Below are positions 22,490 to 33,711 of a stretch of DNA of 64,000 nucleotides, in pieces. A program made the translations under genes and the position numbers. The DNA is taken from assembly GCA_002314915.1 (NCBI GenBank), contig DCHU01000029.1, positions 35,452-99,451 of the forward strand. The letters are read 5' to 3'. Source of the DNA: Bacillales bacterium UBA1744 (GTDB lineage Bacteria; Bacillota_I; Bacilli_A; RFN20; CAG-826). The notes under the pieces are model-generated. The model did no database searches, was not told where the DNA came from, and worked only from the letters and a program-made list of their open reading frames with translations. Position 1 is the stretch's first letter, and every line of letters begins with the position of its first letter.

Positions 22490-23362
22490 TTAGAGGTAGC
22501 GATATTGGTACTTTGACAGGTCGACTTTGTAGTCTTTGACCACTACTCCATCGTTTTCGAGTCGCCTTTTTTGCTCATCAATTCCGCCTGGCGCACCAAA
22601 GTGTTTTGCAAGTTCTCCTTTGGCGTTTACGACCTTGAAACAAGGGTTCTTGTCTGGATCCGGATTCACATGGAGGATGTTGCCGACCACTCTTGCGAGG
22701 CGTTTGTCTCCTAGGTATTCAGCAATCTGACCATATGTGGCGACTTTGCCATCAGGGATCATTCTAAGGAAGGTATACACTCTTTCGCTTAAAGGGACTC
22801 TATTATTCCAGATGACTCGGCCTATGGACGGCTCTTCAGTGCCCATACGAGTTTCGAACGTGAATGACTTGCAGTCCTGGAAACCGACCTTATGTTGCAC
22901 CCTTTCAGATTGTGGATTGGAGATGAAACTGCAGCAAGTAATGCAATCGACTTCTTGTTCTTTGAAGAGATATTCAATTGCGGCCTTTGCTAGTTCAGGC
23001 ATAAATCCTCTACCCCAAAATGGCTTAGCGAGGACATATCCTAGTTCTTTGCATTTATATTCGTTTAGTTCTGGAAAATGATTTGGGTTTGTTTCCTCAA
23101 TGCCGAGTGAGCCAATAACTTTACCGTCATAGACGATTGCGAATGTTTTCTTCCCATTCATGAACATATCAAGAATCATTTGTGATTCGTTGATGTCTTT
23201 GTGATGTGACCATCCCGCCATTTCTCCTACTCCAGGCACTTTTGCATATTCAAAGAAATCCTCTAAGTCCGAAGGCTTAAAAGCCCTTAAAGTGAGTCTT
23301 TCGGTGTTAATTACTACATTTGTTAGGTCGATTGGGAAGTCCATAGATCTCTTATACCCCAT
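22490..23362 (-). CDS. GNAT (RimJ/RimL-like) N-acetyltransferase fused to an MGMT/Ogt-type DNA-binding domain with altered active site
   Basis: The N-terminal half shows a GNAT pattern (LTLRAF...GYVLAKPFWGRGFMPEL). The C-terminal half is ATYGQIAEYLGDKRLARVVGNILHVNPDPDKNPCFKVVNAKGEL, against the canonical TYGxIAxxxGxPxAxRAVGxAxxxNPxxxxxPCHRV. The start may be Met7. Confidence 0.75.
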   Translation of the reverse strand: MGYKRSMDFPIDLTNVVINTERLTLRAFKPSDLEDFFEYAKVPGVGEMAGWSHHKDINESQMILDMFMNGKKTFAIVYDGKVIGSLGIEETNPNHFPELNEYKCKELGYVLAKPFWGRGFMPELAKAAIEYLFKEQEVDCITCCSFISNPQSERVQHKVGFQDCKSFTFETRMGTEEPSIGRVIWNNRVPLSERVYTFLRMIPDGKVATYGQIAEYLGDKRLARVVGNILHVNPDPDKNPCFKVVNAKGELAKHFGAPGGIDEQKRRLENDGVVVKDYKVDLSKYQYRYL

Positions 23363-24055: not shown

Positions 24056-24128
24056 AGTTTTGTACCTCGAGGTAATTATAGTGCAATTAAAGACCTTTGT
24101 TAAATGAGTTTCAAGTTGTATCTTGCGA

Positions 24129-24272
24129 TTATCCTAATGCTGATGAGATTGTGATCTGGCTTGCAACGTCCTGTGCGGACTGCTGGAAAGCCGGGATTAA
24201 AACTGCTGCGATGATGCCGAATACGGCGATGACTAAAACCATCGTGAGCAACGTTCCTTTTAGTTCTGACAT
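24129..24272 (-). CDS. Flp-sized type IV pilin-like protein (47 aa; not in ORF track)
   Basis: My translation is MSELKGTLLTMVLVIAVFGIIAAVLIPAFQQSAQDVASQITISSALG, ending in TAA. A strong RBS AAAGGAGGT lies 5 nt upstream of the ATG at 24272. A short charged leader ends in Gly6 and is followed by a ~22-residue hydrophobic helix. It is the last gene of the Tad-like operon. Track ORF 24097..24294(+) is its antisense shadow. Confidence 0.7.
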   Translation of the reverse strand: MSELKGTLLTMVLVIAVFGIIAAVLIPAFQQSAQDVASQITISSALG

Positions 24273-24285
24273 GGTTACCTCCTTT

Positions 24286-24624
24286 CTAATCTAAATAACC
24301 GATGACCGTCGATCGGGTAACCGACACTGTCATGGCAGATTGCGACATTACAAGAGGGTCGTATTCCCTCGATAAGGTGAATATGAAAACATCACCAGGC
24401 CTTGATGCGGTTGTGGTCTCTATTTTGACGGTGGCTTTGTTCTTCTCTATAAGAGATAGCGTTTCTTTCGATATGGTTCCCTCCAAAGACACCTTCTTTG
24501 CAACCGTCAAAGCGGTAGAGTCTAAGGCGCTGTGGATGGCCTGTATCGAATATAGGTCACCAGAATAGGCGATGACCTCGATTATGAAGAATAAGGTTAG
24601 GATGAATCCGAGTTTAGAGCCCAT
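24286..24624 (-). CDS. TadE-like pseudopilin/minor pilin
   Basis: MGSKLG/FILTLFFIIEVIAYSGDLYSIQAIHSALDSTALTVAKKV has a 6-residue leader ending in Gly. A hydrophobic helix with an embedded Glu and an A-rich amphipathic stretch follow, as in TadE N-terminal domains. Confidence 0.55.
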   Translation of the reverse strand: MGSKLGFILTLFFIIEVIAYSGDLYSIQAIHSALDSTALTVAKKVSLEGTISKETLSLIEKNKATVKIETTTASRPGDVFIFTLSREYDPLVMSQSAMTVSVTRSTVIGYLD

Positions 24625-25255
24625 TGACTATGCCTCCCATGATATTGATTATTCCGACCGTTATCATAATCATCGTCAGAGCGCTTCCGACGAGAGGGAA
24701 GTAAGAGCCTGTGGCTAGTTTCTTATCAAGTCGTTTAACCTCTTGCTTTCTCTCATTTTGCAAAAGGGATGTGAAAAGGAAATTGAACTGATTGATATAG
24801 GAGACATCCCCTCCTTCTATCGACATCCTGTAGATTGAGATGAGGACTTGTTTGCATTCCAATGTGCCGAGTTCCTCACCAAACTCCATAAAAGGCCTGA
24901 CGGTTTTGTCGTTATCAACGCTTTTCAAGAGATTCGTTAGTTTATCCGCCATGGAAGGAGTGGCGAACTGTATTACTTCTTCTATTGCGTTATAAACAGG
25001 AAGCCCGTTTTTGATATAGATTGCAAAATACGAGAAAATCCTGATGAATTCCTGTGATAACGCATCTTTTTCGTCCTGAATCTTTTTCTTTGGACTCGTT
25101 ATGAACAAATAATTCGCAACGGCTAAAATTAGGAATAAAGATATAGGCATAAGCAAAGAGTTCTGCAGCAAGAAACTCAACACAACGAAGGCTATGCCTA
25201 TAACATCCCCTATTATCAATATGATCAGCTGAGTCTTATTTAGTTTTATTCGCAT
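24614..25255 (-). CDS. Single-domain T2SS-F/TadC-like membrane platform protein
   Basis: It has an N-terminal TM pair, a cytoplasmic helical domain (FIRIFSYFAIYIKNGLPVYNAIEEV...) and a C-terminal TM. The size and topology match TadB/TadC. Confidence 0.65.
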   Translation of the reverse strand: MRIKLNKTQLIILIIGDVIGIAFVVLSFLLQNSLLMPISLFLILAVANYLFITSPKKKIQDEKDALSQEFIRIFSYFAIYIKNGLPVYNAIEEVIQFATPSMADKLTNLLKSVDNDKTVRPFMEFGEELGTLECKQVLISIYRMSIEGGDVSYINQFNFLFTSLLQNERKQEVKRLDKKLATGSYFPLVGSALTMIMITVGIINIMGGIVNGL

Positions 25256-25955
25256 TGCGTTTCCTCCATTCGAATTTGAGTTTTTCTCCCGTTATGTTCA
25301 TTGTGAAGAAAAGAGATGAGCCTATCACAAGGACAAAATAGGACACGGTTAAAAGGATGTAGATGATCGAGTTTGATAATTCCTCATAGAACATCGATAA
25401 ACCAAATCTGATGGACAGGAGGATAATCGCGCTTAAGGCCCACAAGGTCAGGAACTGAACCAAGTTATTCATCTTCACTTTGTCCTTCTGATTCTCTACT
25501 TTCTCCACCTCCGCGACCTCGACTAACAAAGGGCCGGCAAGATCTAGGACATCGCCTCCTTGTTCTTCATAGATATGAAATATGGACAAGAACATCTTGT
25601 AGTAATCCTGATGGAAGTAGTTGGCTAGATACTGGATCTTTTCTCTTGCCTGATATTGGTCTATCGAATCCGTTATGTCCTTTTCTTCTCCTGTCACTCC
25701 TTCGATAGCGCTGTAATAAGCGCCATCAACCGAGTTAAGACTGGATAGCGAGACCATGAAAGAGTAGACGAACTGATAACACTCATGCCTCCTTCTCGTT
25801 TTAACTACGTAGTCTCCAACCATAGGCCTAACAAGGAATAGAAGAACCACTTCGAATACCGCAAAAATCAATATCCCGAGAATGATGTTGTTCAACAATA
25901 GGTATCCCATCACCCCATATATCAGGGCGATAACACTGAAAATCGCGTAAATCAT
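25236..25955 (-). CDS. Single-domain T2SS-F/TadB-like membrane platform protein
   Basis: The topology is the same as its neighbour (TMs flanking a helical cytoplasmic domain). It overlaps both neighbours, by 20 nt and 4 nt. Confidence 0.6.
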   Translation of the reverse strand: MIYAIFSVIALIYGVMGYLLLNNIILGILIFAVFEVVLLFLVRPMVGDYVVKTRRRHECYQFVYSFMVSLSSLNSVDGAYYSAIEGVTGEEKDITDSIDQYQAREKIQYLANYFHQDYYKMFLSIFHIYEEQGGDVLDLAGPLLVEVAEVEKVENQKDKVKMNNLVQFLTLWALSAIILLSIRFGLSMFYEELSNSIIYILLTVSYFVLVIGSSLFFTMNITGEKLKFEWRKRNANKTK

Positions 25956-26905
25956 TTATCCCTCCTAAAGAGAACTTCCATGGTTCCGTCGTCATTCAAC
26001 GTACCGATTTCATCTACAAATCGGTGGATGCGGCCGTCTTGGCTCTGTTCTCTTTTTAAAAATATGTAGTTCTTTATGTGCTTAGACACATCGTCTCTAA
26101 GTTCATCCGGCGAGGAACGCTTGTCTCCTTGCATACAAAGTTTGACTATACGGTTTGGCATGGACTCAAGGTTCAAGGCGTGTATGGATGAGATGAGACT
26201 GTGTCCTGATGTCGCGGACACCAAAGCGTCATACATCTCGCCACCTCTGCCCTCCGCGACCACTATGTAGTCAGGATTATTTCTTAAAGCGTTCCTTATG
26301 AGCTTAGGAAATGACGAGGTTTCGTTCTTGTCGTTTGATATCCAAACCGTTAAATCAAGATGAGGTATGGACATTATGTCCAGCTCCTCAATGTTGTCGA
26401 TTACGATGACTCTGGTGTTATCGGGCATCTTGGTTAAAAGCCATTTCTCAAGCTCGGTTTTGCCGGTTGATGTCTCTCCTCCAACGATGATGGAACCTCG
26501 GTTTCTAAGCATTTCTAGGACCAAATCCCTGCTATTTCCTAGGAAAAAGCCTTCATCTTTATCTATTTTCGATTCAAATGACTCTATTCTTAGGTCGAAC
26601 GTGAACACCTTTTCGTTGGAACTCCTTGCGATTGATTTGTAGGTGGCATTTAGCCTATAACGCCCAAAGCTGACATCTAATATCGGAGATGAATACGAGA
26701 ACTGTTTCTCTGATAGGTTGGCAACCTGACGAAGGAAATCACCAACTGTATCACTGCTTATTGCCAAATCTCCTTTGAGCCTTCCCCTCTCGCTTGTCAT
26801 ATAGAAAAGAGCGGTACCGTTATATGAGATGTCGGTTACCTCGGGAATAGAGAGGAATGGTTTTAAGAATGATTCCTCTATGTATTTGGATGTGTCCTTA
26901 TCCAT
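25952..26905 (-). CDS. Secretion ATPase of the VirB11/CpaF(TadA) class (minimal, 317 aa)
   Basis: It has Walker A IIVGGETSTGKTE, an Asp-box/Walker B region RVIVIDNIEE...PDYIVVAEGRGGE, and a His box SGHSLISSIHA. Confidence 0.8.
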   Translation of the reverse strand: MDKDTSKYIEESFLKPFLSIPEVTDISYNGTALFYMTSERGRLKGDLAISSDTVGDFLRQVANLSEKQFSYSSPILDVSFGRYRLNATYKSIARSSNEKVFTFDLRIESFESKIDKDEGFFLGNSRDLVLEMLRNRGSIIVGGETSTGKTELEKWLLTKMPDNTRVIVIDNIEELDIMSIPHLDLTVWISNDKNETSSFPKLIRNALRNNPDYIVVAEGRGGEMYDALVSATSGHSLISSIHALNLESMPNRIVKLCMQGDKRSSPDELRDDVSKHIKNYIFLKREQSQDGRIHRFVDEIGTLNDDGTMEVLFRRDK

Positions 26906-27293
26906 ATATGGCCTCCCCCTCTTTTATGTAAAAGGAAGAAACGCTCTCATAGTGGTATGTGGACAAGAAGTCTCCATAGAACGTGATATCAATCCATGTG
27001 GTTCTCCATACGCCTTCTTCGTAAAACCCATCCAACGGTTCCGTCATGAAGCTATATTTGAGCATTGGCTTGTACATATCTAGATTTGTCTTCAGGTATG
27101 TCTTTACGGTTGATTCCACAACATGTTCGTCAAAGAACGGCTTAGAGGCATCCATAACATTGACCGCCTGGCGGAATACATTCTCATCAAGACCCTGGAA
27201 CGTTCTGTCTAGAGCGCCATAACTCACGGAGAAAGAGAACATCGTGACGCTCAAGATGAAGAGCATCGTCGCTAATAACATATTTGCCATCAT
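26898..27293 (-). CDS. Small N-terminally anchored protein of the Tad-like operon
   Basis: I trimmed the start to ATGATG, which overlaps the upstream TGA (ATGA at 27290-27293), with GGGAGAGA as RBS. The N-terminal TM is MMANMLLATMLFILSVTMFSF. I found no recognisable domain. Confidence 0.55.
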   Translation of the reverse strand: MMANMLLATMLFILSVTMFSFSVSYGALDRTFQGLDENVFRQAVNVMDASKPFFDEHVVESTVKTYLKTNLDMYKPMLKYSFMTEPLDGFYEEGVWRTTWIDITFYGDFLSTYHYESVSSFYIKEGEAIYG

Positions 27294-28360
27294 TCTCTCC
27301 CTACACAATATGTGGACGATATGCAGGATCCGATGAAGTTCTTGGTCTTGGTTACTTCAAACTGATACACCCATTTGTCAAGTTGGTTTGGACCGGTGTC
27401 TATTACTTCTAATATGCACTTGAAAACCTTGGCCTCACCCGCCTCAACCGGAGGGAAGTACAGATCGTTGGTGTACAAATCGGTATCGTTTTTGTCCTCC
27501 ATGCGTTTCATCGTTCTTCCATCCATTGTGACCGCGTATGTGTCCCGGAGTTGGAAGGTGTACATCTCGTTGTCATCGGACTCCACTATCTCAACCGGAA
27601 TCTGTCTCCATGACGTATATCCATCCGTTTCCAAAGGAAAAATATCAAAATCGCTGAGATAATTCGTGATTTTGATATAAGCGTTTCGGTATAACGGCAT
27701 CACAAGTTCTTTCTTATAGTCAAGAACGCCTATCTGAAGTTGATTAAAAGGCAGGCGATTCTTATCAGGATTCTTAAACTCTTTTACAAACCCTTCATGC
27801 TTTATTGTGTACGCGTTCTGATAGACGGTATGATCGCTCACGCTTGCACCCGTGAAGGCGTCTTTATCTCTTTTTAAATCTCCTTCGGTTGTTAAGTCCC
27901 ATGTCCTTGGGCTTTGAACATCGAGTCTGAAATAGGAAACGAATGTAGCGCTCTTTGTGCCATCGGCATTCGTCTCTCTGTTATATAGCCAGAACTTGTT
28001 TCCGGTCGCATTGATCATTTTCCTATCAACCGTAATCGATAGAGTCTTTGTTCCTTTGGCGAATATGGTCACTTTCATCCACATGGTGTCCCTGTAGACA
28101 AAAGAGGTTGGAAACTTGCCGTCGTTGTGGAATTCGGGTGTTGATTCAACGAGGCTGTTATTGAAAACGATGTAGAATTCGTGCGTTCCTTTTCTGACGG
28201 CTTTAAGTTTGATGTCCAGATTAAAATCCTGGTCATTATTTGGAATGCAGCCTATCTCCTGATCGTCTAAGAATGCCGTTTGGGTAACCGTATCTGTCGC
28301 GGTGGTCGCAAAGCATCCGAGGAACATCGAACCAATTAAAGATACCATTGAAAATCTCAT
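27290..28360 (-). CDS. Secreted or lipoprotein-like protein, first gene of the Tad-like operon
   Basis: The signal-like N-terminus MRFSMVSLIGSMFLGC carries a borderline lipobox. RBS AGGGAGA lies upstream. I recognised no family. Confidence 0.55.
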   Translation of the reverse strand: MRFSMVSLIGSMFLGCFATTATDTVTQTAFLDDQEIGCIPNNDQDFNLDIKLKAVRKGTHEFYIVFNNSLVESTPEFHNDGKFPTSFVYRDTMWMKVTIFAKGTKTLSITVDRKMINATGNKFWLYNRETNADGTKSATFVSYFRLDVQSPRTWDLTTEGDLKRDKDAFTGASVSDHTVYQNAYTIKHEGFVKEFKNPDKNRLPFNQLQIGVLDYKKELVMPLYRNAYIKITNYLSDFDIFPLETDGYTSWRQIPVEIVESDDNEMYTFQLRDTYAVTMDGRTMKRMEDKNDTDLYTNDLYFPPVEAGEAKVFKCILEVIDTGPNQLDKWVYQFEVTKTKNFIGSCISSTYCVGRE

Positions 28361-31456: not shown

Positions 31457-33631
31457 TTATTCCTCGTCAGCGTCTTCGTCGTCGCCACCCTGAGGCTTAT
31501 AGTTCTTAAGCTCTTCAGCGTAGTTTGCTTCAACGATGTCACCCTGAACGAGAGGCTCATTGTCTCCCTGCTTAGCGGTGCATGCCATGTCGATGAGCTG
31601 TTTTGCTCTCTTCATCGAGAGTCCGCTCTTGACCTTGAAGCAGCATGGAATGTCTTTGTAGATATTCTTTGCGCTTGCATCGATGACTGGGATTGGTGAA
31701 TCTGCGAAGTCATTTGGGTTGAGAGCTAAGTATAACTTAAGTCCCTTACCTGCGACTGTGACTTTGCAGTATGTTGTGCAGCTTAATCTGAATGTGTCAC
31801 CTGAATTTGAGAGTCTGCTCTTTAATCCATAGGATAAGAGGTATGCCTTGATCTCGTTGTAGTTGTCTAAGAGTGACTGATCGCATTCTGCAAAGCGGTC
31901 TGCGAATGTCTTTCTTTCATAGACGACTGCTGGAGCCGGTTCTTCAACGACAGGCTCTGGCTCTGGTGCTGGCTCTTCAACAACTGGCTCAGGCTCTGGC
32001 TCTGGTGCTGGCTCTGGTGCAGGTGCTGGAGCTGGTGTTAATAAAGCGATTTCCTCACGGATGATTGCGCGGATGTCTTCGCTTGAGAGTGCTGGAGCTG
32101 GCTCTGGTGCTGGCTCTTCTTCAGCAGCTTTCTTTTCGATTTCCTCAGAGACGATGACTCTGATTTCTTCTGCTGTTAAGACTGAATCTGCGATAGCTTT
32201 GATTGCTTCGTTCTGTCTTTCTTCGACTGCCTTCTGAGCTTCTTCCTTTTCAGCATCCTTAGCTGACTGAGCAGCGAATGCGTCATTGATGACTGAACGG
32301 ATGTCATCGAGAGAGATAGCTGGAGCAGGTGCTGGTTCTTCAACGACAGGCTCTGGCTCTGGCTCTGGTGCTGGCTCTGGCTCTGGTGCTGGAGCTGGGA
32401 CTAATGCCTGGATTTCTTCGCGGATGATAGCGCGGAGATCATCGCCTGTTAATGTGTCGTCTTCGACGACTGGTTCTTCTTCAACTGGTTCTTCTTCAAC
32501 AGCTGGAGTTGCTCCTGCATAGTATGCATCGAGTTCCTTGCGGACGAGGTCACGAGCTTCGTCGTCTGTTAATGGACGATCGTTCTCTGGGTGATCATGG
32601 TCATCAAGAGCTTCTGCGATGATTTCGCGGAGTTCTTTTGCTGTTAATGGTCTGTTGTCTTCTTCAACAACAGGCTCTGGTGCTGGAGCAGGTGCTGGAG
32701 CTGGTTCTTCCTTCTTCTCCTCTGGCTGTGGATATGGATAGTATGGAGGGAATGGTGGATATGGGTATGGGTATGGAGCATACTGAACTGGAGCTGGCTG
32801 AGCTGCTGGAGCTGGTCCTGCGCAGTAGAAATTCTGGACGATCTGAGGTCCGTTCTTTCCTGGGACTTCTGCCTGTCCTGCTTTAGCAAGTTCATCATAC
32901 TGAGCTGCCTTGAGAGCTGCTTCGTCTGCTGCCTTGTCTTCTTCTTTTGCTTCTTCTGCAACTGGTTCGTCAGACTTGACTTCGCCAAGCTTAGCGTTCT
33001 TAGCTGCTTTAGCTTCTTTTGCCTTCTTGACTCTCTTCTTGCCGTTTTTAACAGCGTCAGCGAGTGACTGGAATTCATAAACGACTGCGATGATTAAAGC
33101 AACAGCAGCGAGGATGAATGGGAGAGCTGTGTAAAGCATCTGGACAACAACTTTGAGTTTCTCAACGAACGTTCCAGATAATGGGAGAGCACCCTTAATG
33201 ATAGACGAGAGTGTTGCTGATGGAGCGATTGCGCCTGCAGTGATTGCTGACAAAAGGATTGTGTATGCTGCTGCAGATGTAATGAGATAGAGGATTGTGC
33301 AGACTGTGCCTGATCCACGTCTCTTTGCGATGAATCCGATGAACTGGATTAACCAGACGATGACGAGGAAGATTAATCCTCCGAATGCGACCCAAGCACC
33401 GATCTTTCCGAATGTGACTGTGCCTGCGGAACCTGTGAATCCTAAAGCCGCGAATAAGTTCATAAAGGTTGCTGGAACAGCCTTAATGATTGAGAGTAGC
33501 GCTCTAGGTTCTGACTTGATGAGCGAGATGTTCTTTCCTGCAATCTGGAGTGGAGTGAGGAAGAGAACTAATGCTGCTAATCCGACAAGAACTAGTGCTA
33601 CTATGGCATTTACAATAGATTTTTTCTTCAT
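31457..33631 (-). CDS. Membrane protein with long Pro/Glu/Ala-rich repeat region and conserved C-terminal globular domain, unknown function
   Basis: I trimmed the track ORF to the ATG at 33631 (MKKKSIVNAIVALVLVGLAAL; RBS AGAGGT). It has about 5 N-terminal TMs. Six amphipathic modules (for example DDLRAIIREEIQAL and SEDIRAIIREEIALL) are separated by (PA/PE)n linkers. The C-terminal domain is YERKTFADRF...KVKSGLSMKRAKQLIDMA. Confidence 0.7.
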   Translation of the reverse strand: MKKKSIVNAIVALVLVGLAALVLFLTPLQIAGKNISLIKSEPRALLSIIKAVPATFMNLFAALGFTGSAGTVTFGKIGAWVAFGGLIFLVIVWLIQFIGFIAKRRGSGTVCTILYLITSAAAYTILLSAITAGAIAPSATLSSIIKGALPLSGTFVEKLKVVVQMLYTALPFILAAVALIIAVVYEFQSLADAVKNGKKRVKKAKEAKAAKNAKLGEVKSDEPVAEEAKEEDKAADEAALKAAQYDELAKAGQAEVPGKNGPQIVQNFYCAGPAPAAQPAPVQYAPYPYPYPPFPPYYPYPQPEEKKEEPAPAPAPAPEPVVEEDNRPLTAKELREIIAEALDDHDHPENDRPLTDDEARDLVRKELDAYYAGATPAVEEEPVEEEPVVEDDTLTGDDLRAIIREEIQALVPAPAPEPEPAPEPEPEPVVEEPAPAPAISLDDIRSVINDAFAAQSAKDAEKEEAQKAVEERQNEAIKAIADSVLTAEEIRVIVSEEIEKKAAEEEPAPEPAPALSSEDIRAIIREEIALLTPAPAPAPEPAPEPEPEPVVEEPAPEPEPVVEEPAPAVVYERKTFADRFAECDQSLLDNYNEIKAYLLSYGLKSRLSNSGDTFRLSCTTYCKVTVAGKGLKLYLALNPNDFADSPIPVIDASAKNIYKDIPCCFKVKSGLSMKRAKQLIDMACTAKQGDNEPLVQGDIVEANYAEELKNYKPQGGDDEDADEE
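31925..32830 (-). repeat. Intragenic coding repeats (hexamer-periodic GCTCTG/GTGCTG tracts; ~396-bp spaced duplicated block)
   Basis: The exact 29-mer GGTTCTTCAACGACAGGCTCTGGCTCTGG occurs at 31938 and again at 32334. Both copies are followed by (GGCTCT/GGTGCT)n and by a GATTTC..CGGATGAT.GCGCGGA block. Confidence 0.8.
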
Positions 33632-33711
33632 AGTATTACCTCTTTTGCCTTTATATAATACACACGCACACAAAAAAGAAAAGCGCAATTTATCACATTT
33701 TTGCAAAGTTT

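Follow-up and report, generated by a model that had tools for sequence, protein, structure and literature searches.

A candidate mini-pilin gene closes a probable Tad-like type IV filament operon in uncultured gut Bacilli

Within the 64,000-nucleotide stretch of contig DCHU01000029.1 from Bacillales bacterium UBA1744 analysed here (the window), a 47-codon open reading frame (ORF) on the minus strand, at 24129–24272, is certainly a real gene under strong purifying selection. It closes a seven-gene operon that very probably encodes a divergent type IV filament machine of Tad-like build, and we regard its 47-amino-acid (aa) product, MSELKGTLLTMVLVIAVFGIIAAVLIPAFQQSAQDVASQITISSALG, with moderate confidence as the major subunit (a mini-pilin) of this Tad-like or archaeal-like machine. 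The assignment as candidate major subunit draws on the ORF and its translation, on the selection acting on it and on a family profile. An initial annotation, made from the letters alone, had given the ORF at precisely these coordinates and with this translation. The protein consists of a leader, MSELKG, a 23-residue uncharged segment and a short polar tail ending in ...SSALG. Beyond Lys5 it contains neither Lys nor Arg, so that trypsin would release one peptide of about 42 residues, difficult to detect. Upstream of the ATG lies a Shine–Dalgarno sequence, AAAGGAGGT (24277–24285, read as 24285–24277 on the minus strand), separated from it by 4 nucleotides (nt; AACC), or by 5 nt when counted from the GGAGG core; the ribosome-binding site described earlier thus stands, and its distance, then given as 5 nt, was off by at most one. 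GGAG is kept 5–11 nt 5′ of the start of the small gene in 73 of 75 distinct relatives. The preceding gene, which encodes a protein of 112 aa, ends with a TAG at 24288–24286, leaving the 13-nt gap reported at first; the median gap across relatives is 16 nt.

The gene had been called unannotated, which is true only for an ORF track with a 60-aa cut-off: it was overlooked by that track alone, because the JGI, Logan and NCBI gene calls already contain the exact protein. An NCBI entry that is 98% identical to it, MCQ2797009.1, bears the name 'type II secretion system GspH family protein'. As the GspH model TIGR01708 gives the window protein 13 bits against a cut-off of 80, this name is an over-annotation, unsupported by the model score. 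The minor pseudopilin GspH, of about 170 aa and with a β-sheet domain, resembles the 47-aa protein only in that a hydrophobic helix comes after a short, basic leader; the window protein has neither that size nor that domain.

Dozens of ORFs of 40–60 aa occur in the window, so that a length of 47 codons carries no significance alone, and we therefore examined conservation by aligning the codons of the window gene with those of syntenic loci in relatives (L numbers denote loci). Between the window and L010, 23 differences are synonymous and 1 is non-synonymous (ratio of non-synonymous to synonymous rates, dN/dS, about 0.006; Fisher p = 2e-16), and 2/0/23 of the differing nucleotides stand at codon positions 1/2/3. 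Pairs more distant than this give dN/dS values of 0.1–0.4, with dS saturated. The case for purifying selection draws on dN/dS values of 0.006–0.2. Homologues of 47–56 aa share 50–98% identity and an invariant start, MSELKGTLL, and among close relatives the small protein is the best-conserved product of the operon (98% versus 82% for the ATPase). Loss of the reading frame in related loci had been named beforehand as grounds for abandoning the gene; the minus-strand frame is preserved, with those 23 synonymous changes to a single non-synonymous one. A search for homologous small ORFs at the 3′ end of similar loci had also been proposed, and a profile search finds them in the same position in at least 80 loci. 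The 65-aa plus-strand ORF at 24097–24294, described initially as an antisense shadow, is present and is no gene: it must be a shadow because stop codons break its frame in L010, L011, L013, L006 and L002.

A profile scan for genomes with the ATPase returned 240 relatives. The best 80 are all metagenome-assembled genomes labelled Bacilli, Mollicutes or Erysipelotrichaceae; they include Candidatus Enteromonas, which we take to be RF39 in GTDB, and Alloenteromonas, and they come from gut, rumen and faeces. The gene order (356-aa protein, ~130-aa protein, ATPase, 239-aa protein, 213-aa protein, 112-aa protein, small gene) is identical in 74 loci, and it is always the small gene that closes the operon; in six further loci two small genes stand in tandem. 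In these (L050, L060, L063, L064, L075 and L078) the copies lie at about 10.6–11.1 kb and have divergent tails, like flp1/flp2 duplications; flp genes are often found in tandem. On its upstream side the operon has gmk in 58 of 66 loci, and on its downstream side acpP (62 of 67 loci). Because this position is fixed across ATPase identities of 41–82%, the operon is vertically inherited core-genome content of an uncultured lineage of gut Bacilli and not a mobile island.

The third gene of the operon (25952–26905, minus strand) encodes a 317-aa secretion ATPase that its Pfam match, its matches in the PDB and its motifs place in the VirB11/CpaF/FlaI clade, and it is the sole operon protein that curated libraries recognise. 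It scores 65 bits against Pfam T2SSE (cut-off 24.9), and its alignment contains a Walker A motif (GETSTGKT), a Walker B-type motif (VVAEGRGGE) and a His box (SGHSLISSIHA). In NCBIfam, VirB11 is the best model (96 bits); it and the TadA-type models stay below their cut-offs (92 bits against 373 for TIGR03819), ComGA reaches 48 bits, and the scan gave no match to the SpoIIIAA model. Sequence matches in the PDB are headed by archaeal afGspE (5e-23), followed by HP0525/VirB11 (5e-20), FlaI (8e-18) and CpaF (1.7e-16), with PilT, PilB and BfpD far behind.

Two genes for platform proteins follow. The first encodes a TadB-like protein of 239 aa (25236–25955, minus strand), assigned from hhalign and sub-threshold Pfam matches, and the second a TadC-like protein of 213 aa (24614–25255, minus strand), assigned from AlphaFold2, Foldseek and Pfam T2SSF. 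The two families align with each other in hhalign at 91.6% (E = 8e-7, 130 columns) and are therefore paralogues. The 213-aa protein has two N-terminal transmembrane helices, a cytoplasmic helical domain of GspF type and C-terminal transmembrane helices. Its AlphaFold2 model (predicted local distance difference test score, pLDDT, 81) has as its top eight Foldseek matches solely the cytoplasmic domains of platform proteins (OutF, EpsF, SpoIIIAB and PilC), with probabilities of 0.84–0.99, target TM-scores of 0.55–0.65 and weak E values of 0.2–0.9. T2SSF is the commonest Pfam match of the 213-aa family (8 of 56 relatives, best E 6.6e-5) and the second commonest of the 239-aa family (4 of 56), in both cases below threshold. 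PDB sequence searches with profiles of the 239-aa, 213-aa, 112-aa and small proteins returned nothing meaningful. Two separate half-size platform proteins together with an ATPase of the CpaF/VirB11/FlaI clade form the Tad arrangement, and platform proteins of the GspF type are parts of type IV filament machines rather than of the channels of type IV secretion systems (T4SS).

The 112-aa protein (24286–24624, minus strand) is a pilin-shaped, TadE/TadF-like candidate for a minor pilin, as judged from AlphaFold2, sub-threshold TadF matches and hhalign. With a slash marking the putative junction, its N-terminus reads MGSKLG/FILTLFF in the window and M-[GSA]-[SY]-K-[LI]-G/F-[LI]-L-S in the family, and its polar head of six residues is equal in length to that of the small protein. 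The AlphaFold2 model (pLDDT 87.9) has a helix at residues 2–48 and a three-stranded sheet, the minimal shape of a pilin. Its 478 homologues are all named 'hypothetical', and nearly all are 113 aa long. 'TadE-like', the name first given to this gene, is therefore tentative: behind it stand the pilin shape of the model and matches to Pfam TadF (PF16964) that stay under the threshold, seen for 9 of 57 relatives (best E 2.4e-4) and not for the window protein.

Two genes lead the operon. The first (27290–28360, minus strand; position kept in 86 loci) encodes a fast-evolving 356-aa protein with a Sec-type signal peptide, a mean column identity of 16% and a conserved pair of C-terminal cysteines (G-x-C-x6-C; G-x-C-x2-S-x-Y-C-V, GSCISSTYCV in the window), which makes a candidate for a component at the surface or an adhesin. 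The second (26898–27293, minus strand; family directly before the ATPase in 87 loci) encodes a protein of about 130 aa whose N-terminus is a hydrophobic anchor, with the consensus M-x-N followed by some 20 hydrophobic residues, and its true start is probably a Met at about 27293–27290 rather than the TTG at 27308. Pfam scans of both families gave no match. We make no claim that the small, 112-aa and ~130-aa proteins are paralogous pilins, because hhalign comparisons of the small-protein family with the other two were not significant.

The family of the small protein was collected by a profile search of 1.84 billion representatives (E ≤ 0.001) and clustered at 50% identity, which gave 239 clusters with lengths of 46–135 aa (median 59); position statistics refer to 225 distinct sequences and Pfam scans to 143 relatives. 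All but one of the profile matches listed begin at residue 1 in both profile and protein. The N-terminus, MSE[ILVF]KG/[QT]LL, is nearly invariant: M1 is found in 100% of sequences, S2 in 96%, E3 in 99% and K5 in 100%, position 4 is one of [ILVF], and position 6 is Gly in 95% and otherwise Ala (5%). At position 7, the putative +1, Gln (79%) and Thr (16%) prevail, Gln, Thr and Ser together making up 99%; L9 (97%) and F18 (99%) are also conserved. Beyond position 6 the residues are uncharged over a stretch whose median length is 24, and a variable tail comes next. The order of polar leader, Gly, hydrophobic helix and polar tail noticed initially in the single protein is therefore a family-wide trait, as K5 (100%) and G6 (95%) attest. 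Separately, 79 of the 225 members (about a third) end in an aromatic residue, often as ...LLTF, ...LHY or ...YHF, which may be a contact or anchoring motif; the window protein lacks it.

Compared at the level of patterns, the family has the class III signal (K/R at −2, G/A/S at −1, then about 20 or more hydrophobic residues), and in sequence its layout is of the class III signal peptide type, with K-G or K-A at −2/−1 and Gln or Thr at +1. Substrates of the archaeal EppA type have a +1 residue of the Gln/Thr type after a K-G or K-A junction. The size, too, is that of Flp prepilins (about 45–80 aa with one hydrophobic helix, encoded with genes of tadA/tadB/tadC type). The initial call of a pilin of Flp or archaeal class III type thus holds as regards size and layout; membership in Flp does not. 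The Flp motif G/XXXXEY has Gly at −1, Glu at +5 and Tyr or Phe at +6, and the window protein reads G/TLLTMV. Nor does the family conform to the bacterial pilin motif [KR]-G-[FYLIVM]-[ST]-[LT]-[LIVP]-E, since +1 is Gln, Thr or Ser and there is no Glu at +5. Flp_Fap (PF04964) is not matched by the window protein at E ≤ 1 and is absent from the families listed for the 143 relatives (25 of 69 families shown, so that at most one member could match). NCBIfam pilin equivalog models give the window protein 13–18 bits against cut-offs of 49–400, and the sub-threshold alignments to GspG, ComGC and PpdD lay window residues 7–37 on the N-terminus of the mature pilin. Sub-threshold Pfam matches among the relatives are to DUF6112 (22), archaeal Pilin_N (6), TadE (2) and Arch_flagellin (1).

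Among known machines, the operon most invites comparison with Tad, of which the monoderm Tad/Flp (type IVc) examples are the tad locus of Bifidobacterium breve, Rv3654c-3660c of Mycobacterium tuberculosis and the tad-like competence pili of Micrococcus luteus. Both have one ATPase, which belongs to the CpaF/VirB11/FlaI clade, a platform (probable in the window operon) made of two separate half-size proteins instead of the fused PilC/GspF of other systems, a subunit of about 45–60 aa that is essentially one hydrophobic helix and is sometimes encoded in tandem, the lack of a secretin, and a candidate TadE/F-like small pilin-shaped protein in the operon. The window family differs in lacking G/XXXXEY, Glu5 and a Flp_Fap match, its ATPase has just 317 aa and no N-terminal extension, its operon families match the T2SSF and TadE/F models only below threshold, and two extra genes (for the 356-aa and ~130-aa proteins) precede the ATPase gene. 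Neither TadZ/CpaE nor TadV/CpaA is among the seven conserved operon genes. We also considered the loci of TANB77 and Bulleidia, which carry canonical Tad systems (PMC11680825, PMC12786226), and set them aside as unlike the window operon. Literature searches on the N-terminal peptide, on pili or Tad in RF39 and on DUF6112 found no description of this system.

Archaeal pili with class III signals (substrates of EppA, PibD or FlaK, and Epd) share a short leader closed by K-G or K-A, a Gln as the +1 residue (79% here) and the absence of Glu5; the nearest solved ATPase is the archaeal GspE, ahead of VirB11 and FlaI, and Pilin_N and Arch_flagellin appear below threshold. The window operon, by contrast, belongs to Bacilli and has a split platform in place of one archaeal FlaJ/PilC-like protein, its subunit is far smaller than most archaeal pilins, and no peptidase gene is adjacent. 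The competence pseudopilus ComG (ComGA–GG with ComC) is likewise a type IV filament machine of Bacilli in which ATPase, platform, small major pilin and minor pilins are encoded together in a single operon; ComGB, however, is one fused two-domain platform protein, ComGC has a canonical KG/FTLxE, and the window ATPase scores 48 bits for ComGA versus 96 for VirB11.

A homologous module is found on conjugative plasmids of Gram-positive bacteria. The best full-length plasmid matches to the ATPase (about 30% identity, 92–96% coverage) are named 'CpaF/VirB11 family' and lie on conjugative plasmids of Firmicutes, for example E. faecium p32 (L096), B. velezensis pDSYZ (L097), B. anthracis pXO2 (L103) and L. 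monocytogenes pLM5578 (L104), as well as at L105 and L106. These neighbourhoods are collinear with the window operon and, except for the ATPase, all annotated as hypothetical. A surface adhesin is encoded some way upstream; next come an N-anchored protein (about 125 aa), the ATPase, three proteins (about 275, about 245 and 120 aa) and one to three small ones of 44–50 aa. The adhesin gene, large and of TED/SpaA type, precedes the ATPase gene and is found close to the module end at which the 356-aa gene stands in the window operon. In hhalign, platform proteins of window and plasmids align at 95.2% over 227 columns (the 239-aa protein with the one after 'VirB11') and at 93.5%, and the 112-aa protein aligns with the plasmid 120-aa protein at 93.3% over 99 columns; the ~130-aa family and its positional counterpart reach a non-significant 6%, despite weak top hits with hidden Markov models. 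The plasmid platform protein tested is present on 272 PLSDB plasmids, 224 of them typed conjugative, with Bacillus (180, including pXO2 and pBT9727), Listeria (45) and Enterococcus (31) as hosts.

The collinear core is thus shared by modules of the pXO2/pAW63/pBT9727, pLM5578 and p32 types; the plasmid ATPase is 100–150 aa longer than that of the window, and the plasmid module lies inside conjugation gene clusters whereas the window operon is chromosomal. On pAW63 the module corresponds to CDS (coding sequences) 19–25, listed as hypothetical proteins around 'VirB11' (PMC1196294), and a 2022 review names only its ATPase (PMC9673590). TrbC/VirB2 or CagC is encoded separately on the plasmids. The shared gene set suggests that the 'VirB11' of pAW63 and pXO2 belongs with the pair of platform proteins in a Tad-like filament module and not with a T4SS channel.

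With the small protein as the major subunit, the machine would work as follows. After membrane insertion, the six-residue leader MSELKG would lie on the cytoplasmic side, where a class III-signal (prepilin) peptidase, its gene located at another place in the genome, would remove it by cleaving after Gly6; we give this putative cleavage no better than an even chance. The two platform proteins, driven by the hexameric ATPase, would then pull the 41-residue mature helix (TLLTMVLV...) out of the membrane and polymerise it. The 112-aa protein (M-x-x-K-L-G/F, with a leader of equal length) would serve as the priming minor pilin, and the secreted, fast-evolving 356-aa protein as a surface or adhesive partner. 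Adhesion or cell–cell contact is the likely use of such a machine, and DNA uptake a possible one. The subunit may also remain unprocessed, with Glu3 in the role of Glu5.

Several results weigh against the mini-pilin assignment. No member among the 225 has Asp or Glu anywhere in positions 7–24, and the family is accordingly without the Flp G/XXXXEY and the bacterial GFTLxE; no Pfam or NCBIfam pilin model was matched at threshold by the window protein or the 143 relatives. The 'leader' (S2 96%, E3 99%, K5 100%) is better conserved than the mature part, which is odd because it would be a discarded peptide. The A24 peptidase motif (G-x-G-D-x-K, G-G-A-D-x-K) was not found in the operon, in the 64-kb window, within 10 kb beyond each end or in about 1.1 Mb of flanks of 80 loci (operon surroundings, not whole genomes), and motif searches for A24 peptidases across all ORFs of the window and 100 loci were likewise negative. 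A Foldseek search of the 112-aa model against the PDB gave no significant match (best E 0.28), probably because the solved pilins lack the N-terminal helix. Finally, the plasmid proteins of 44–50 aa are not detectably homologous to the MSExKG family in hhalign; they have the same layout, with a polar head that ends in Arg and no Gly at −1, and the generality of the cleavage model is therefore weakened.

In the main rival account, which we consider rather unlikely, the small protein is not the polymerised subunit but stays unprocessed and spans the membrane once as a component of the machine (an assembly factor, a regulator or a stator-like partner of the platform), and any filament is built from the 112-aa protein, the ~130-aa protein or both. 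Such a component would account for an N-terminal hexapeptide that outdoes the rest of the protein in conservation, for the absence of Glu5 and of a nearby peptidase, and for plasmid counterparts without Gly at −1, and it is the 112-aa protein that has the fuller pilin shape. Yet the size, the layout and the strongly translated position at the operon end fit major pilins of the Flp type, the gene is duplicated in tandem in the six loci, an invariant N-terminus with a variable tail is the typical pattern of pilins, and the junction, Lys followed by Gly or Ala, is kept in 100%/100% of members.

Distinctly unlikely in our estimate, though still to be weighed beside the mini-pilin reading, is that the chromosomes of RF39-like gut Bacilli and the plasmid 'VirB11 module' share an unrecognised class of type IV filament-like machine whose subunits of 40–50 residues do without the canonical prepilin-peptidase step. 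It suggests itself because Glu5 is absent, the hexapeptide is nearly invariant, Met excision is possible and the plasmid subunits have no Gly at −1. Met excision is to be expected, given that essentially every member has a small second residue (Ser, Gly, Ala or Thr).

A further alternative, that the operon is a conjugation- or T4SS-related device, a domesticated 'VirB11 module' in which the small protein is a VirB2/TrbC-like pilin or channel subunit, seems to us quite improbable. VirB11 is indeed the best NCBIfam match of the ATPase, the core (ATPase, platform pair and 112-aa protein) is homologous to and collinear with the tra-region module of pXO2, pAW63, pLM5578 and E. faecium p32, and 22 of 143 members give a sub-threshold match to DUF6112. 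Against it stand the chromosomal position fixed between housekeeping genes over the 41–82% range of ATPase identity, the absence of relaxase, VirB4 and VirD4 from the gene calls of three loci (L010, L011 and L006, the other flanks being unscreened), platform proteins of GspF type, which typify filament machines and not T4SS channels, and the separate TrbC/VirB2 or CagC gene of the plasmids. A mobile conjugation element at the window locus was rejected on the gmk/acpP position and on the lack of relaxase, VirB4 and VirD4 in those three loci.

That the small protein is a SpoIIIAC-like part of a complex akin to the sporulation feeding tube, or a leader-bearing peptide like a bacteriocin, is very improbable. 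One sub-threshold SpoIIIAC match, the presence of SpoIIIAB among the structural matches of the 213-aa model and the prediction that RF39-type lineages retain some sporulation genes (PMC10868615) speak for the former. SpoIIIAC, however, is matched in only 1 of 143 members and below threshold, the ATPase does not match the SpoIIIAA model, and order and content differ from spoIIIAA–AH, with no analogues of AE–AH; on the missing SpoIIIAA match, the single SpoIIIAC match and the different gene order, a SpoIIIA-like system was ruled out. A bacteriocin precursor was ruled out as well: bacteriocin leaders of the double-glycine type are much longer than the six residues here, and neither a cognate ATP-binding cassette (ABC) exporter nor an immunity gene is present. 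Last, the notion that the plus-strand ORF at 24097–24294 is the expressed product, or that the region is non-coding, has nothing in its favour beyond the existence of that ORF, and we exclude it with near certainty on the substitution pattern, which tracks the codon phase of the minus strand, and on the stops in five relatives, one of them very close.

If the mini-pilin reading is right, an order-level lineage of abundant uncultured Bacilli of gut, rumen and faeces has a surface filament machine in its core genome, and in these organisms, whose genomes are reduced, it would be an obvious candidate for attachment to hosts or partners or for the uptake of DNA. Current profile libraries miss the machine and name the ATPase alone. 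The subunit family, with its 239 clusters, lies outside the Flp, bacterial and archaeal pilin profiles, and a dedicated model would correct names such as 'GspH family'. The plasmid homology bears on the 'VirB11' ATPase of pXO2 and pAW63, whose role in Gram-positive conjugation has been unsettled since 2005.

Some observations concern the surroundings of the operon. A promoter-like site for acpP, TTAACA-17-TATAAT, lies at 24103–24075, and the spacer between the small gene and acpP (24056–24128, minus strand) also contains the stretch ACTTGAAACTCATTT.ACAAA, which L010, L011 and L013 have in nearly identical form. In the window the small gene lacks an intrinsic terminator behind it, whereas L002 and L015 have clear terminators made of a hairpin and a T-run. 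Six operon contigs (L039, L042, L048, L053, L055 and L062) belong to metagenome-assembled genomes (MAGs) titled Escherichia coli, Prevotella sp., Alistipes shahii, Hallerella sp., Bacteroides uniformis and Bacteroidaceae; these titles are probably errors of taxonomic labelling or binning in one MAG series ('cleanbin'). Elsewhere in the window, a minus-strand gene at 31457–33706 encodes a 749-aa protein with N-terminal membrane segments and long Pro/Ala/Glu-rich repeats (PAPAPEPEPEPVVEE...), found in the same place in L010 and L011 and with no Pfam match on record. Another, at 22490–23362 on the minus strand, encodes a 290-aa fusion of a GNAT acetyltransferase with the DNA-binding domain of 6-O-methylguanine DNA methyltransferase (Acetyltransf_3 and DNA_binding_1).

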